IMG/VR virus record: IMGVR_UViG_2529292906_000009
Coordinates: 3,303-67,302 of that record
Strand: one strand, 5' to 3'
DNA length: 64,000 bases
Source: a virus
Lineage: Duplodnaviria; Heunggongvirae; Uroviricota; Caudoviricetes
Shown: piece after piece, positions 3,226 through 40,018 of the stretch
Layout: every line of letters starts with the position of its first letter
Numbering within the stretch: position 1 is the stretch's first letter
Notes under the pieces: generated by a model
What the model saw: the letters and a program-made list of their open reading frames with translations, nothing else
The model's database searches: none
Told to the model about the DNA's origin: nothing
Made by a program: the position numbers and the translations under genes

Positions 3226-3446
3226 TATCGGTTAACCAGTTCCTTGTTGGTGGAGTCCAGGGTGTCAAACAGGGATGCAAATTCAGCATCCAGCGCCGCT
3301 TTTTTGTAGGCTTCGAAAGTAGCCTTGCTGACAATTACTGCTGGCTCACGGCCTCTGCGGGTGATTTCAACCTCTTCCCCGGCTTCAACATTGTTGAGCA
3401 CTTCAGAAAGGTTGCCACGCGCGGTACGGAAGTTAATGGATTGCAT
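3225..3446 (-). CDS. phd: Phd antitoxin
   Basis: 73-aa product [32 protein letters not shown]... recalled as P1 Phd; immediately upstream of doc. Confidence 0.95.
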
Positions 3447-33712: not shown

Positions 33713-33989
33713 GTTGTAACCCTTGAATATCAACCACAGAAAGCTCGTCTTTGTAGAAAAAGGCCAGGTTGTGGCACCCCCTCGTTTGAGCGTATGAGCT
33801 GGGACCAATTTCGTTCTTCCAGACAAATGGCTTCAAATCCGTACGGCGAAGCATAAAAACGCGATTTGTTCCGCTCTGATTCCCAATGAGGCAAAAGCCT
33901 TCTTTCACCTTGATAGCCTGCAAGTTGTCGAGTTCACCGCTGGTTACACGGCTATCGAACTCTTTGCGGCTTATTAGCTCCATCTGCAT
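33705..33989 (-). CDS. Hypothetical protein, about 94 aa (start uncertain)
   Basis: Track ORF 33705-34061 begins at a TTG inside the operator; internal ATG at 33989 has GGAG upstream. Confidence 0.4.
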
Positions 33990-34060
33990 CTGACGACTCC
34001 AAACAAATGCCCATTGAAGGGCGATGGCTGAATGGTACCGAAAATACGACATAAAAAACA

Positions 34061-34077
34061 ATATTTATTAGAGCAAT
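34061..34077 (-). promoter_or_regulatory. C1-operator-like 17-mer (16/17)
   Basis: atatttattagagcaat in the divergent region between the hrdC/dmt operon and the rightward PAAR-like operon. Confidence 0.5.
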
Positions 34078-34158
34078 TTTACAATAGTTGAACTCCATGT
34101 AGACCACAAACAACCTGAGTTAAAATAACGAAAATCAGAGCAAATAATTGGTGATGAC

Positions 34159-34443
34159 GTGGCAAGTATTGCAACAAAAGACAGCATTTGTTCGGGGCAC
34201 GGAGGATTCCCATCCAGGCCTCCCGTAGAGAGCGAACCACTACTTAAAGTCAACGGAGTCGAAGTGTTAGTTGATGGTAAGCAATATGCACAGCATACCG
34301 ATGGGAACAGCACGCACGGCGGGCAAGCTATATCAACCAGGGCATGGTTTACCGTCAACGGGAAAGGGATCGTATGCGTTGGTGATCCTGTTTCATGCGG
34401 CTCTACCGTAGCGTCCGGAGACGGCCTGGTTCAGGTAAGTTAG
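34159..34443 (+). CDS. PAAR-like domain protein, 94 aa (GTG start)
   Basis: KVNGVEVLVDGKQYAQHTDG... and FTVNGKGIVCVGDPVSCGSTVASG resemble PAAR repeats. Confidence 0.5.
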   Translation: MASIATKDSICSGHGGFPSRPPVESEPLLKVNGVEVLVDGKQYAQHTDGNSTHGGQAISTRAWFTVNGKGIVCVGDPVSCGSTVASGDGLVQVS

Positions 34444-34451
34444 GAGATATC

Positions 34452-35240
34452 ATGCTGGAAAAAGACTACCAGTTATCCGCATATAAAAAATTGGCCGCCG
34501 CCGGTGGGATGAAAACACCTGGTGCCATAACATCGGCACGAAACAGTGCTAACACAGCAAAACTGCTTGCAGAAGAATTGACCGGATTAATTCTGGATAC
34601 AATTGTCTATCCCGACACTATTACCAGCTATGTTTCAACGATCAGAACAACCGCAACCGGTTTAACGAATATTGGAGGGCTGGCAACTCAGCACGCGGAC
34701 CTGTTGGCTGGTTATGCTGATCTGTCAATGCTCCTTCAACTCGATATTGGTTGGGATGTTTACTGTCGTGCTAATGAGCGAGAAGTTTCAGAACTGCCGA
34801 TCTCTATTGCCATTGGTGATGTGACTATTACTAAATCGCTTGAGGACGCTGTAAACGCGCTTAATACATCAAGTTTAGTCGCTGCTATGGGGGAGATTAA
34901 CCAGACCCTTAACACTGGCTCAGGAAGCTCGTCAGGCTCTGGTTCAGGCGGCGGCACTGCCACTCCCCCACCAGCACTAACAGAAGAGCAAATTGAATCT
35001 CTGAAAGTAGCAACTGAACAGTTTGGGATTGTTTTCAACCAGACAACAGCACCCACAACTGCGTTACAACAGCAGTATGAACGAGCGAATGAAAGCGCCA
35101 ACGTAGCCATAACTGCTTATAACCATGCTATCGGTATCGCGCTTGCGGAAGCATCAGCAAATAAGGCCAGCACAGCCAGCGCAGTTGCCGCTTTGGTTCC
35201 TGATTCTGTTCTTGATGAATTAAACAAAGCGGCACAGTAA
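34452..35240 (+). CDS. Hypothetical protein with Gly/Ser-rich linker, 262 aa
   Basis: ATG at 34452 with AGGAGA RBS; GSGSSSGSGSGGG linker. Confidence 0.5.
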   Translation: MLEKDYQLSAYKKLAAAGGMKTPGAITSARNSANTAKLLAEELTGLILDTIVYPDTITSYVSTIRTTATGLTNIGGLATQHADLLAGYADLSMLLQLDIGWDVYCRANEREVSELPISIAIGDVTITKSLEDAVNALNTSSLVAAMGEINQTLNTGSGSSSGSGSGGGTATPPPALTEEQIESLKVATEQFGIVFNQTTAPTTALQQQYERANESANVAITAYNHAIGIALAEASANKASTASAVAALVPDSVLDELNKAAQ

Positions 35241-35279
35241 CAAAGGACTTCATTGATAATTTTTCTTCAGGAGGAAGAC

Positions 35280-35702
35280 ATGTCATTCTTTTCTACGTTA
35301 AAAACAGCTTTGTCTTTGAAGGAGAAACTTGCTGCTACTGGTGTTCTTGTTCTGATTTGCGCACTTGTTGGTGCTGGGTTTGCATGGGAACGTCATCAGC
35401 TAAAGCAAGCCATAGAGAAAATTGGCAGTCTTGATCAGGCTGTTAAGGAACGTGATAAGTCAATAATGGATCTTAACCAGACCATTGAGACGATGAACAA
35501 AGCAGAGCAACATTTTCACAGCCAGGAAGTGAAAAATGAATCAGAACAAGCCAAGTATGCTGACAGGCAAATGGAACGAAAAGCTGAAGTTCAGAAACAA
35601 CTGGTTGCGGCGGGTAATGTTCGCCAGCGTATTCCTGCTGACACTCAGCGGTTGCTCCGGGAGTCGATCAGCGAATTTAACGCCGACGCCGACAAAGGTT
35701 AA
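35280..35702 (+). CDS. Putative i-spanin (Rz-like): N-terminal TM helix plus coiled coil
   Basis: AGGAGG RBS before ATG 35280; TM segment GVLVLICALVGAGFAW; o-spanin-like lipoprotein ORF in +1 frame at its 3' end. Confidence 0.5.
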   Translation: MSFFSTLKTALSLKEKLAATGVLVLICALVGAGFAWERHQLKQAIEKIGSLDQAVKERDKSIMDLNQTIETMNKAEQHFHSQEVKNESEQAKYADRQMERKAEVQKQLVAAGNVRQRIPADTQRLLRESISEFNADADKG

Positions 35703-35868
35703 CCACCCTGCCCCCAAAAGTGCATTTATGTGCAGGATGCCAGAGTTTAGCAGTGAATATTTTGATGATCTGCCAGCTTATATCCTCGATACAGAAACGA
35801 TGCTGATGGGGATTAACAGGAAGAATCGCAACGTTAATGATTACAACCGAGCTATTAGCGGTAACTAA
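35617..35868 (+). CDS. Putative o-spanin (Rz1-like outer-membrane lipoprotein), overlapping the i-spanin gene
   Basis: MFASVFLLTLSGC lipobox followed by Pro-rich LTPTPTKVNHPAP. Confidence 0.45.
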   Translation: MFASVFLLTLSGCSGSRSANLTPTPTKVNHPAPKSAFMCRMPEFSSEYFDDLPAYILDTETMLMGINRKNRNVNDYNRAISGN

Positions 35869-35879
35869 AAGGGATTTTT

Positions 35880-36272
35880 ATGTCTGATAAAGTAACAGTA
35901 AAGCAAACTATCAACAAAGCGACTTCAATCTACAAAATTGAGCAAATCACTGTTGGCAAGCCAGGATCTGAACAATACCGTCGTGCTTTCGAGCTTGCCG
36001 ATCAGCTTGGTTTAAAACACCCGGATTGCATTGAGCATGTATTTCCGACCTATGCTGATGAGCAATGTACTCATGTTCTTACCGAAGAGGATTTTTTCAG
36101 CACTGAAGAACGAGAAGGCGTTGATCGCTGCATTGGTGTGATTTGTTCTTCGGTAAGTGATGAGTTATTCCCTAATGTGCCTGAATATGGTGGTATTGGA
36201 TACCAATTCCTGTACGAGGGCGATGAGCTTAAATGCTATGAACATGGTCTTCTCATCGAAAGCGTAGAATAA
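35880..36272 (+). CDS. Hypothetical protein, 130 aa
   Basis: ORF in track; followed by a terminator. Confidence 0.5.
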   Translation: MSDKVTVKQTINKATSIYKIEQITVGKPGSEQYRRAFELADQLGLKHPDCIEHVFPTYADEQCTHVLTEEDFFSTEEREGVDRCIGVICSSVSDELFPNVPEYGGIGYQFLYEGDELKCYEHGLLIESVE

Positions 36273-36286
36273 TACGACTCCCTTCC

Positions 36287-36310
36287 AACCGGCTACGTTG
36301 GCCGGTTTTT
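36287..36310 (+). terminator. Rho-independent terminator before oriR
   Basis: AACCGGC-TACGTTG-GCCGGTT hairpin followed by TTTTT. Confidence 0.6.
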
Positions 36311-36590
36311 CACTTATCCACATTATCCACTGGATAGATCCAATAATCAGGTCCATACAGATCCCAATTAGATCCATATAGATCCCTGATCGTTGCAGGC
36401 CGCGCCACGTCTGGCTTAGAAGTGTATCGCGATGTGTGCTGGAGGGAAAACGATGTGTGCTGGAGGGATAAAAATGTGTGCTGACGGGTTGCTAATGTGT
36501 GCTGGCGGGATATAGGATGTGTGCTGACGGGAAAGCCTGGGTAGTTATCACCACTTATAAAAACTATCCACACATTTCGGAAAAAGTAAT
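36305..36590. other. Plasmid replication origin oriR: tandem DnaA boxes, five GATC sites in AGATCC heptamers, incC iterons
   Basis: TTATCCACA/TTATCCACT at 36314-36331; GATC cluster 36335-36395; iterons 36431-36535; DnaA box at 36565-36573. Confidence 0.8.
36431..36535. repeat. incC: five direct iterons (GATGTGTGCTGGAGGGAAA type)
   Basis: Five roughly 19-bp repeats at about 21-bp spacing directly upstream of repA. Confidence 0.85.
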
Positions 36591-37451
36591 ATGAATCAAT
36601 CATTTATCTCCGATATTCTTTACGCAGACATTGAAAGTAAGGCAAAAGAACTAACAGTTAATTCAAACAACACTGTGCAGCCTGTAGCGTTGATGCGCTT
36701 GGGGGTATTCGTGCCGAAGCCATCAAAGAGCAAAGGAGAAAGTAAAGAGATTGATGCCACCAAAGCGTTTTCCCAGCTGGAGATAGCTAAAGCCGAGGGT
36801 TACGATGATATTAAAATCACCGGTCCTCGACTCGATATGGATACTGATTTCAAAACGTGGATCGGTGTCATCTACGCGTTCAGCAAATACGGCTTGTCCT
36901 CAAACACCATCCAGTTATCGTTTCAGGAATTCGCTAAAGCCTGTGGTTTCCCCTCAAAACGTCTGGATGCGAAACTGCGTTTAACCATTCATGAATCACT
37001 TGGACGCTTGCGTAACAAGGGTATCGCTTTTAAGCGCGGAAAAGATGCTAAAGGCGGCTATCAGACTGGTCTGCTGAAGGTCGGGCGTTTTGATGCTGAC
37101 CTTGATCTGATAGAGCTGGAGGCTGATTCGAAGTTGTGGGAGCTGTTCCAGCTTGATTATCGCGTTCTGTTGCAACACCACGCCTTGCGTGCCCTTCCGA
37201 AGAAAGAAGCTGCACAAGCCATTTACACTTTCATCGAAAGCCTTCCGCAGAACCCGTTGCCGCTATCGTTCGCGCGAATCCGTGAGCGCCTGGCTTTGCA
37301 GTCAGCTGTTGGCGAGCAAAACCGTATCATTAAGAAAGCGATAGAACAGCTTAAAACAATCGGCTATCTCGACTGTTCTATTGAGAAGAAAGGCCGGGAA
37401 AGTTTTGTAATCGTCCATTCTCGCAATCCAAAGCTGAAACTCCCCGAATAA
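36591..37451 (+). CDS. repA: Plasmid replication initiator RepA
   Basis: 286 aa; recalled match to P1 RepA; flanked by incC and incA iterons. Confidence 0.9.
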   Translation: MNQSFISDILYADIESKAKELTVNSNNTVQPVALMRLGVFVPKPSKSKGESKEIDATKAFSQLEIAKAEGYDDIKITGPRLDMDTDFKTWIGVIYAFSKYGLSSNTIQLSFQEFAKACGFPSKRLDAKLRLTIHESLGRLRNKGIAFKRGKDAKGGYQTGLLKVGRFDADLDLIELEADSKLWELFQLDYRVLLQHHALRALPKKEAAQAIYTFIESLPQNPLPLSFARIRERLALQSAVGEQNRIIKKAIEQLKTIGYLDCSIEKKGRESFVIVHSRNPKLKLPE

Positions 37452-37740
37452 GTGTGTGCTGGAGGGCAGCTGCATTTGAAAAATGTGCGCTGCCGGGAAT
37501 GCCTGCCCATTTTCCTGTTTTTGGTGTGCGCTGGAGGGTTGCGCCACGCAGTTTGCCCAGACATTCCCTCCAGCACACATCTAACCATCCAAGTTTCCCT
37601 CCAGCGCACATCTAATCTTCTATCTTTCCCTTCAGCGCACATATTTGATACCAGCGATCCCTCCACAACACATAATTCAATGCGACTTCCCTCTATCGCA
37701 CATTCTGGTCCTGCATCATCCCTCCAGCACACATCTAATA
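37452..37740. repeat. incA: nine iterons (three forward, six reverse) downstream of repA
   Basis: GTGTGCTGGAGGG-type repeats and their reverse complements CCCTCCAGCACACA counted directly. Confidence 0.8.
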
Positions 37741-37844
37741 GCCTCATCGCTATTTCTTTACGTGCAATAATTTACGCACGAATCAAAATAAGTTGCACGT
37801 AGCAGAATCAAACGTACAATTCACTCATACGAAATGATAAGGAG

Positions 37845-39056
37845 ATGATGATGAAACGCGATTACGGCGGTGTCGGCACCATAGCTCTTCGTGCAAGCGC
37901 ATTACTTAAGGCCATGAGTCAGGATATTGAAGATCAGCGCAAAGAGTTCAATCAGACCGAGTATTATCAGACGTTCACTCGTAACGCTGTGGCAAAGTTG
38001 CCGAAGCTGAGCCGCCGCATTGTGGAGCAGGCCATCAAAGAGATGGAAGATGATGGGTACCAGTTCAACAAGAAACAGGTCGGTAACGTTGAACAGTACG
38101 CGCTGACCATCCAGAACGTCATTGATATCTATGCCCACCGTAAGATCCCAAAATATCGCGACATTCACAAATCGCCTTACGTTATTTTTGTCGTAAACCT
38201 GAAGGGTGGCGTATCCAAAACGGTTTCCACAGTCACGTTGGCGCACGCTCTGCGTGTGCATCAGGATTTACTGCGTCACGATCTGCGCATTCTGGTAATT
38301 GACCTTGACCCTCAGGCATCCAGCACAATGTTCCTCGACCATACTCACAGTATTGGTTCCATCCTGGAAACCGCCGCGCAGGCGATGCTGAACGACCTGG
38401 ACGCGGAGACGCTACGCAAAGAGGTGATTCGTCCGACCATCGTTCCTGGCGTAGACGTGATTCCAGCCTCTATCGACGATGGCTTTGTTGCCAGCCAATG
38501 GAAAGAGCTGGTTGAAGAGCATCTTCCCGGACAAAATCAGTACGAAATCCTTCGACGCAATATCATTGATCGTGTTGCGGATGATTATGACTTTATCTTT
38601 ATTGATACCGGTCCACACCTGGATCCGTTCCTGCTCAACGGTCTGGCGGCCAGCGATTTGCTGCTTACCCCTACCCCACCAGCCCAGGTTGACTTCCACT
38701 CAACACTGAAATATCTCACCCGTCTGCCAGAAATGCTGGAGCAACTGGAGGAGGAAGGCGTAGAACCGCGTTTAAGCGCCAGCATTGGTTTTATGTCGAA
38801 GATGACCGGCAAGCGCGATCACGAGACATCACACAGCCTTGCGCGTGAGGTTTACGCCAGCAACATTCTGGACTCTTCTCTACCTCGTCTGGATGGATTT
38901 GAGCGATGCGGCGAGTCTTTCGACACCGTAATCAGTGCCAACCCGCAATCGTATCCAGGCAGTGCAGAGGCGCTGAAGAAGGCTCGAACCGAGGCCGAGC
39001 GTTTCACTAAGGCTGTGTTTGATCGAATTGAGTTTGTTAGGGGTGAGGCGGCATGA
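37845..39056 (+). CDS. parA: Partition ATPase ParA (type Ia)
   Basis: 403 aa; NLKGGVSKT deviant Walker A; N-terminal HTH extension; parB follows. Confidence 0.9.
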   Translation: MMMKRDYGGVGTIALRASALLKAMSQDIEDQRKEFNQTEYYQTFTRNAVAKLPKLSRRIVEQAIKEMEDDGYQFNKKQVGNVEQYALTIQNVIDIYAHRKIPKYRDIHKSPYVIFVVNLKGGVSKTVSTVTLAHALRVHQDLLRHDLRILVIDLDPQASSTMFLDHTHSIGSILETAAQAMLNDLDAETLRKEVIRPTIVPGVDVIPASIDDGFVASQWKELVEEHLPGQNQYEILRRNIIDRVADDYDFIFIDTGPHLDPFLLNGLAASDLLLTPTPPAQVDFHSTLKYLTRLPEMLEQLEEEGVEPRLSASIGFMSKMTGKRDHETSHSLAREVYASNILDSSLPRLDGFERCGESFDTVISANPQSYPGSAEALKKARTEAERFTKAVFDRIEFVRGEAA

Positions 39057-40018
39057 AAAAAATAGTTTCCCGTGGACGAGTGCTGGGCAAGAATAGCTCC
39101 GAGTTTGCTCGCATGCTTGAAGGCAGTGAAGGCACCAAAACCTTTACCCTAAAATCTGGCCGCCAGGCTAAATTTTTGCTTACCGTTGTGCTGAGTGGTG
39201 AGATTGAGTCGCGCACGTTCGTTGACCCGGCAGTTAACGGCCGCGATCAGTCTCTGCTCACCCCTGAGTCGGTAAGCGATATTTCCCGCACCATTAAATT
39301 GCAACAGTTCTTCCCGGCTATCGGTCGTATGGTTGGGGAGCGCATTGAGGTATTGGACGGATCACGTCGCCGCGCTGCGTGTATCTTCAATGAAACGAAA
39401 TTTGAGATTCTGGTGACGAAAGATGAGATCAGCCTGGCGGATGCACGCCAGCTGGCCATTGATATCCAGACAGCCCGCGAACACACCCTGCGCGAACTGG
39501 GTAAACGCTTCGAGGTTATGTATGGTAAGAGCATGACCAAAGAAGAGATCGCCCGCGCTGAGAACATTTCAAAGGCTAAAGTTACGCGCGCGTTCCAGGC
39601 GGCAGCGGTGCCGGATGAGATGATTGCTGTCTTCCCTGTTGCCAGCGATCTCGCCCTGCCAGATTACCAGTTACTGCTCCAGATCTCCGAGGATGCCAAC
39701 GCTAAAAGCGTGCCTATTGAAGAGCTGGTTGATACGGTGCGCGAACGAATTGCAGAGACTGAGGGCGCGAAAGAGGATAAAGCGAAGATACTGGCTATCT
39801 TCAAAGCGGAAAGCAAAAGCCTGAAGCCCGCGCCGGTTAAATCTGTGGTGGTTGAGAAGCTGCGAGACTTCTCTGACCGTCGCCAATATGCTCGAAAGAA
39901 GTCCGATCCGAAAAAACGGGTTGTCGCCTACGAGTTCTCCAGACTCCCGTCTGAAGTGCAAACTGAAATTGACGAAGCAATAAAAAAAATCATTGGGAAA
40001 ATGTCTGCTGGGGAATAA
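39053..40018 (+). CDS. parB: Partition protein ParB
   Basis: 321 aa; ILDGSRRR ParB box; start overlaps parA stop. Confidence 0.85.
   Translation: MKKIVSRGRVLGKNSSEFARMLEGSEGTKTFTLKSGRQAKFLLTVVLSGEIESRTFVDPAVNGRDQSLLTPESVSDISRTIKLQQFFPAIGRMVGERIEVLDGSRRRAACIFNETKFEILVTKDEISLADARQLAIDIQTAREHTLRELGKRFEVMYGKSMTKEEIARAENISKAKVTRAFQAAAVPDEMIAVFPVASDLALPDYQLLLQISEDANAKSVPIEELVDTVRERIAETEGAKEDKAKILAIFKAESKSLKPAPVKSVVVEKLRDFSDRRQYARKKSDPKKRVVAYEFSRLPSEVQTEIDEAIKKIIGKMSAGE

Follow-up and report, generated by a model that had tools for sequence, protein, structure and literature searches.

The upfC-upfA operon and its late expression

We analysed a group of rightward genes next to a plasmid replication origin in a window of 64,000 nucleotides (nt), given as one strand, which covers positions 3,303 to 67,302 of the tailed-phage (Caudoviricetes) record IMGVR_UViG_2529292906_000009 of IMG/VR. 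Unless another source is named, coordinates are those of the window. The region 33800-36600 was 97.7% identical to bacteriophage P1 (NC_005856, in reverse orientation), and the same region was 96-97% identical to P7, SJ46, RCS47, and other P1-like phage-plasmids. The P1 annotation (P1 locus NC_005856, 62950-65063) could be transferred gene for gene; the deduced PpfA, Mlp, and UpfA proteins were identical to those of P1, and UpfC differed by one substitution. We best explain the locus as the upfC-upfB-ppfA-mlp-upfA operon of a phage-plasmid of the P1 family, in which UpfC is the tip of the tail spike and PpfA and Mlp are predicted spanins, and we put the probability of this explanation, with both roles included, at about 0.88. 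The phage-plasmid carries the operon as a late-expressed accessory unit between the early uhr-hrdC-dmt operon and oriR/repA. The features are as follows.

34061-34077, minus strand: C1 repressor operator (P1 Odmt/Op68), from the P1 annotation (L001 3262-3278), in the divergent uhr/upfC region
34108-34126, plus strand: candidate late (Lpa-type) promoter of upfC, AAACAACCT-gagt-TAAAAT, 51 nt before the start codon
34159-34443, plus strand: upfC, 94 amino acid residues (aa), GTG start, PAAR/gp5.4-type spike-tip protein
34452-35240, plus strand: upfB, 262 aa, two-domain all-alpha protein with a disordered Gly/Ser linker
35242-35260, plus strand: candidate late (Lpa-type) promoter of ppfA-mlp(-upfA), AAAGGACTT-catt-GATAAT, starting 38 nt before the ppfA ATG
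35280-35702, plus strand: ppfA, 140 aa, predicted i-spanin (inner-membrane subunit)
35536-35868, plus strand: mlp, 110 aa, +1 frame, predicted o-spanin (outer-membrane lipoprotein)
35880-36272, plus strand: upfA, 130 aa, fifth gene of the operon
36287-36312, plus strand: intrinsic terminator, AACCGGC-loop-GCCGGTT (36287-36307) followed by a T-run, at the left edge of oriR

The uhr-hrdC-dmt genes lie upstream on the minus strand. The operator there, atatttattagagcaat, is the C1 operator consensus in reverse complement, and according to the P1 annotation Odmt/Op68 controls the leftward Pdmt promoter. Downstream of upfA, oriR with its DnaA boxes and RepA iterons (annotated at L001 5494-5735, corresponding to 36293-36534 of the window) is followed by repA, which starts at 36591. 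The terminator after upfA was the only plus-strand intrinsic terminator found, and it abuts the annotated oriR. The 2.2-kb operon was present in 760 plasmid records, in 495 of them near full length. Among 63 distinct but close haplotypes drawn from viral contigs, all five open reading frames (ORFs) were intact in at least 61, and the terminator stem was invariant, with a variable loop.

An earlier, sequence-only reading of 34159-35868 had described a PAAR-like ORF, a Gly/Ser-linker protein, a transmembrane/coiled-coil ORF, and a +1-frame lipoprotein ORF with the lipobox LLTLSGC; all of them were found where it had placed them. It had joined these genes into a rightward operon ending at a terminator just before oriR. 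The direction and the terminator hold, but the operon has a fifth gene, upfA, beyond 35868. The placement that seemed surprising in that reading, with a spike-tip gene and spanin genes beside the origin, is the normal gene order of P1.

The operon genes are expressed late. In published RNA sequencing of P1vir (PMC8201110), the log2 values of the five genes from upfC to upfA rose from 4.1-5.6 at 10 min to 10.5-11.2 at 30 min. The late genes gene 23 (5.4 to 12.1 over the same interval), lyz (6.1 to 11.3), and gene 5 (4.2 to 9.9) behaved alike, whereas the flanking early genes uhr, hrdC, dmt, repA, parA, and parB were already at 7.4-9.5 at 10 min.

The first four genes recur as a block in distant relatives, namely phage D6 (UpfB 27% identical), Cronobacter phage JK004 (UpfB 58% identical), and three further enterobacterial lineages (L015, L016, and L017). 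In D6 and JK004, the block consists of a PAAR protein, UpfB, a transmembrane/coiled-coil protein, and an overlapped +1-frame lipoprotein with the lipobox L(L/M)TLS(G/A)C; the D6 block proteins also match spanin families of PHROG, and the D6 block is not adjacent to repA. The flagged features are far above chance, as the +1-frame ORF with its lipobox is kept in six diverged lineages.

The arrangement itself is already known from a spanin prediction in 2007, the assignment of UpfC in 2022, and cryo-electron microscopy (cryo-EM) of UpfC and a UpfB tripod in 2025-26, and the result carries little weight beyond correct annotation. P1-type phage-plasmids encode a spike tip and predicted spanins beside the plasmid origin, apart from the baseplate and lysis cassettes.

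PpfA and Mlp as a predicted spanin pair

From their sequences, PpfA and Mlp are strongly predicted to be a two-component spanin of the P2 LysB/LysC type with overlapped genes. PpfA contains one transmembrane helix (residues 17-35, nt 35328-35384, mean hydropathy 2.35), and its 18 N-terminal residues include three K/R and one D/E, a positive N-side that agrees with an N-in/C-out topology. The periplasmic part of 104 aa shows a heptad pattern at about residues 38-82. The AlphaFold2 (AF2) monomer model has a helix at residues 3-110, a break at 111-119, and a second helix at 120-138, at low confidence (mean predicted local distance difference test (pLDDT) score of 67).

The mlp gene is preceded by an AGGAAG Shine-Dalgarno sequence 6 nt upstream of its start. 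It starts inside ppfA, overlaps it by 167 nt (35536-35702) in the +1 frame, and runs 166 nt beyond the ppfA stop codon. The lipoprotein ORF is therefore overlapped and not embedded, as it had been called at first, since in an embedded pair the o-spanin ORF lies wholly inside the i-spanin ORF. The lipobox LSGC (residues 37-40, nt 35644-35655) satisfies a PROSITE-like rule, which bears out the lipoprotein signal proposed for this ORF; Cys40 is followed at +2 by Ser, not by Asp, the residue that retains lipoproteins in the inner membrane. The mature protein would have 71 aa, a Pro/Thr-rich start, and one further cysteine (C66). The lipobox codons were invariant in the 63 haplotypes. Known spanin pairs contain at least one periplasmic cysteine, available for disulfides between molecules, in 507 of 528 cases; here, PpfA has none, and Mlp has C66 besides C40 at the lipidated site. 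The Introduction of PMC9025707 calls ppfA the o-spanin and mlp the i-spanin; the transmembrane helix of PpfA and the lipobox of Mlp indicate the reverse.

Family searches placed the pair with known spanins. PpfA matched phrog_89 (5e-25 over residues 21-139), which P2 LysB matched at 5.8e-61; Mlp matched phrog_456, the P2 LysC family (2.7e-5), and by hhalign the Mlp family matched P2 LysC with 94.9% probability (E 4e-8). The sequence-only reading had proposed an Rz/Rz1-type pair: the spanin-family matches uphold the pair, but its type is that of P2 LysB/LysC and not that of lambda. Profile searches for PAAR and spanin families, which that reading had suggested as a check, gave matches to both (phrog_281 for UpfC, and phrog_89 and phrog_456 here). 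The PpfA-LysB link needed the PHROG profiles because the thin PpfA profile (effective number of sequences (Neff) of about 2) gave nothing useful by hhalign, with probabilities of 0.7% against the single lambda Rz and 2.9% against the single P2 LysB sequence. A Pfam search with PpfA and Mlp yielded coiled-coil noise and no spanin match, and a PDB sequence search with PpfA gave no match.

In the proposed mechanism, PpfA would be anchored in the inner membrane by its single N-terminal helix and would span the periplasm as a long helical rod, while Mlp would be exported, receive its lipid at Cys40, and be directed to the outer membrane, consistent with the Ser at +2. Once the endolysin Lyz has removed the peptidoglycan, the PpfA-Mlp bridge may fuse the inner and outer membranes and complete lysis.

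Several points weigh against a spanin role. The best NCBIfam matches stayed below their cut-offs (LysB TIGR03495 for PpfA, 18 bits against 92.75; LysC NF038368 for Mlp, 14.7 bits against 27). In PMC9025707, the two genes are named as the P1 spanins on the prediction of Summer et al. (2007), and their standing there is that of a prediction only. When ppfA or mlp was knocked down by CRISPR interference (CRISPRi), no defect in plaque formation was seen (efficiencies of plating of 1.3 and 0.24, respectively), while lambda Rz was scored as essential in the same study. Finally, ppfA and mlp are unlinked to lyz and lydAB, an unusual arrangement for spanins.

The last two of these points would also fit PpfA and Mlp as envelope proteins with another role, such as superinfection exclusion, protection of the lysogen envelope, or an entry function linked to the spike tip. 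In P1, JK004, D6, and the three other lineages, the two genes always share an operon with the spike-tip module and never with an endolysin or holin, and the original annotation offered only a 'possible periplasmic function' for one and a 'membrane lipoprotein precursor' for the other. We nevertheless consider such a role unlikely. Both proteins belong over their full length to the P2 LysB and LysC profile families, the pair has the architectural hallmarks of a two-component spanin (the two-helix periplasmic domain as a low-confidence prediction), its expression is late and not of the prophage type, and the literature offers no alternative spanin candidate for P1. Spanin mutants form normal plaques except where the outer membrane is stabilised by divalent cations, as in the genetics of lambda Rz/Rz1, and the CRISPRi result is compatible with a spanin role because the phenotype is conditional.

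UpfC and the proposed place of UpfB at the tail spike

UpfC is a spike-tip protein of the PAAR/gp5.4 type, an assignment well supported by the solved structure of a nearly identical protein. The PAAR-like character of the 94-aa ORF, seen already in the sequence-only reading, was borne out by matches to phrog_281, 'PAAR motif' (2e-30), to P1 'UpfC' in PDB 9vyi_A (1.7e-60; the single substitution is S86 here and A in P1), to T4 gp5.4 (5iv5 and 4ku0, about 1e-7), and to the PAAR protein 4jiv (3.7e-4). Residues H14, H46, H53, and C80 of UpfC correspond in the alignments to the His/His/His/Cys residues of 4jiv_D and T4 gp5.4, positions that we take, from PAAR structures, to be metal ligands. The partner spike is encoded by the gene 5 homologue (24404-25036), which follows the gene 6 hub directly; the spike-tip gene is indeed far from the spike gene, at a separation of 9 kb.

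In a published BLAST comparison of the T4 and P1 tail proteins, only gp5.4 and UpfC matched each other, and in the 2022 study HHpred named UpfC as the spike tip. Two cryo-EM studies, one of them PMC12810830, place a UpfC monomer on the gp5 trimer. The monomer would cap the trimeric gp5 beta-helix spike and thereby sharpen the membrane-piercing end of the tail.

Three results stand against this assignment: the Pfam match to PF05488 (26.4 bits, E 8.5e-6) is 0.6 bits under the gathering score of 27, and in the 2022 study deletion of upfC caused no plaquing defect and UpfC was undetected in virions using liquid chromatography-tandem mass spectrometry (LC-MS/MS). This lack of detection, together with the distance of upfC from the baseplate genes, could suggest a moron-type PAAR protein that is not part of the virion and acts with a host type VI secretion system (T6SS) or as a toxin carrier. 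In PHROG, the category of phrog_281 is 'moron, auxiliary metabolic gene and host takeover', and the best NCBIfam match of UpfC is the T6SS PAAR domain NF033420 (4.5e-9, below its cut-off). Such a role is very improbable, as a protein differing in one residue is a modelled chain in the P1 structure 9vyi and has been placed on the gp5 spike by both cryo-EM studies. In addition, UpfC is nearer to T4 gp5.4 than to the PAAR proteins of T6SS, consists of nothing but a 94-aa cone with no effector extension, and is expressed late alongside the tail genes.

In the case of upfB, the longest ORF (34395-35240, 281 aa, overlapping upfC by 49 nt) has the start given in the P1 record. The true start is probably the ATG at 34452, which gives 262 aa and makes the annotated P1 start 19 codons too long, because a Shine-Dalgarno sequence (AGGAG) lies just upstream of this ATG, over the stop codon of upfC, the match to phrog_1559 covers the 262-aa form from end to end, and the D6 and JK004 homologues begin directly after the PAAR stop codon. 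The Gly/Ser linker extends from G156 to G168 and on to P174 (nt 34917-34973); the AF2 model is all-alpha (pLDDT 84), with two helical domains and a disordered Gly/Ser linker at residues 158-169. Foldseek found no significant match to this fold in PDB and BFVD (best template modelling score 0.41, E above 1e-3), and the PDB sequence search with UpfB also gave no match.

UpfB differs from the P1 protein at 20 of 262 residues (23 positions in the annotated 281-aa form), clustered in a mosaic patch. At the nucleotide level the patch (34800-35100, UpfB residues about 117-216) has 40 mismatches in 300 nt against P1, with flanks diverged by 0-1%, and among the 63 haplotypes the nucleotide diversity of middle upfB was 0.051 against about 0.02 in the neighbouring genes, or about 2.5 times higher. 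The patch may be an exposed or host-interacting surface of a tip-attached protein.

PMC12810830 (2026) describes UpfB as forming three trimers, a 'tripod', at the tip of the spike. UpfB would be translationally coupled to upfC, and its three trimers would attach at the tip. Two facts count against this role: the assignment is an AlphaFold3 model fitted to a medium-resolution map, and UpfB was absent from the 2022 virion proteome (LC-MS/MS). We tentatively regard the modelled tripod as plausible but not firm.

Relatives, candidate late promoters, and known systems

The overlapped o-spanin gene is routinely missed or shortened by automatic gene callers. The genes called were shortened or omitted at L004 4773-4907, L015 2931-3089, L017 2949-3089, and L016 2760-3089; the called products were 44-52 aa in JK004, L015, and L017, and the gene was uncalled in L016. 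This might be taken to mean that mlp is a chance ORF that is not expressed, an idea effectively refuted by conservation: an ORF of 109-110 aa occupies the same position and frame in all six lineages, its lipobox and CRMPE...YFDDLPAYI motifs are kept though PpfA is only 22-64% identical (JK004, D6, and the group at 59-64%), it is intact in 62 of the 63 haplotypes, its product is homologous to P2 LysC, and its start has the Shine-Dalgarno sequence described above. In L015 and L016 the lipobox reads LNGC or LNAC; with its Asn at -2 it does not conform to the strict lipobox pattern.

Large protein searches with PpfA, UpfB, and UpfA found P1-family relatives only, and a scan of viral contigs for UpfB found only relatives of at least 91% identity; neither search gave a distant context outside the P1/D6 group.

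The position between mlp and oriR varies among the relatives. UpfA occupies it in P1 and JK004, two Salmonella-type lineages (L015 3100-3453 and L017 3101-3466) have an unrelated PF13876 (gp49/66-like) protein there, and L016 (3090-3478) and D6 have no gene at this point. As the fifth gene varies in this way, the conserved unit consists of four genes and upfA is cargo. UpfA (130 aa, five cysteines) had no family match in Pfam or NCBIfam and no structure match in PDB. It may be an exchangeable passenger gene, and the stem-loop terminator behind it would halt late transcription at the oriR border.

The upfC-upfA region of the P1 record has no annotated late promoter. We scanned the region with a matrix made from eight annotated P1 late promoters (consensus AAGTGACTT-N4-TAnAAT), whose own scores are 13-21 bits; the Lpa-type layout is a 9-bp -22 box (AAGTnACTT), a 4-nt spacer, and a -10 box (TAnnnT). 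The scan found no canonical late promoter upstream of upfC, and the two candidates in the feature list scored 6.8 bits (34108-34126) and 8.1 bits (35242-35260), below the annotated promoters, which speaks against their being late promoters. At the second site, the P1 annotation has a predicted sigma-70 promoter only.

The boxes recur in the relatives. Upstream of upfC, boxes 48-52 nt before the start in five other lineages scored 7.0-11.8 bits, among them JK004 (7.0), L015 (11.8), L016 (11.4), and L017 (10.2). Upstream of ppfA, the scores were 12.9 in JK004, 9.6 in L015, 18.0 in L016 (with a perfect AAGTGACTT -22 box), and 13.8 in L017. In the 63 haplotypes, the -10 box TAAAAT of the upfC candidate was invariant, as was the -22 box of the ppfA candidate, where variation was confined to the spacer. 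We infer two putative Lpa-type late promoters that are degenerate in P1 itself; the two candidates are the sole element absent from the accessible literature, and the conserved promoter-like boxes make the late switch-on of the operon directly testable.

Two other sources of transcription were rejected: read-through from the LP26 operon, as about 9 kb of opposite-strand genes lie between, and sole control by the C1 operator, as the C1-controlled uhr-hrdC-dmt genes are early and this operon is late. The matrix also gave strong matches at 21942-21960 on the plus strand (AAGTGACTG-gtga-TAACCT, 16.2 bits), close to the 5' end of the homologue of gene 7, and 1017-999 on the minus strand (ATGTGACTT-tcgt-TACCCT, 14.7 bits); at the P1 position matching the former, the stretch inspected has no annotated late promoter.

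A more far-reaching proposal, to which we would give even odds, is that UpfC/UpfB and PpfA/Mlp form one conserved four-gene 'envelope-crossing' module, co-inherited in P1, JK004, and D6, with two late promoters outside the annotated P1 set and a fifth position that serves as a slot for exchangeable cargo beside oriR.

Compared with the P1 locus, the gene order, orientation, neighbours (uhr/hrdC/dmt on one side and oriR/repA on the other), and terminator are all equal. The differences are allelic only: the residues of UpfB given above, and another allele of the par region. In contrast to repA and oriR, which are nearly identical to P1, the stretch 37400-39600 (the end of incA and parA/parB) has about 35-50 mismatches per 100 nt, plus indels; such divergence beside a near-identical repA/oriR indicates that the partition allele here differs from that of P1.

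With the tips of T4 gp5.4 and other PAAR proteins (4ku0, 5iv5, and 4jiv), UpfC shares a single-domain cone of about 95 aa, a conserved metal site of three His and one Cys, and, in the cryo-EM studies, the capping of a trimeric beta-helix spike. Unlike in T4, the P1 tip gene lies 9 kb from gene 5, in a separate operon with the spanin genes, and the P1 spike is without the lysozyme domain of T4 gp5. A further difference is the proposed UpfB tripod of P1; neither T4 nor our fold searches offered a counterpart to it.

The lambda Rz/Rz1 pair resembles PpfA/Mlp in predicted mechanism and topology, with a type II inner-membrane protein and a +1-frame outer-membrane lipoprotein, but Rz1 is fully embedded in Rz, the lambda families are phrog_13 and phrog_3198, and PpfA and Rz are as distant as the hhalign value above indicates. 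P2 LysB/LysC is closer: it shares phrog_89 and phrog_456, the overlapped +1-frame layout, and similar sizes (141/96 aa in P2 and 140/110 aa in P1). The difference lies in gene position, as the P2 genes are part of the lysis cassette, after the holin, the endolysin, and lysA, whereas ppfA and mlp of P1 stand apart from lyz and lydAB.

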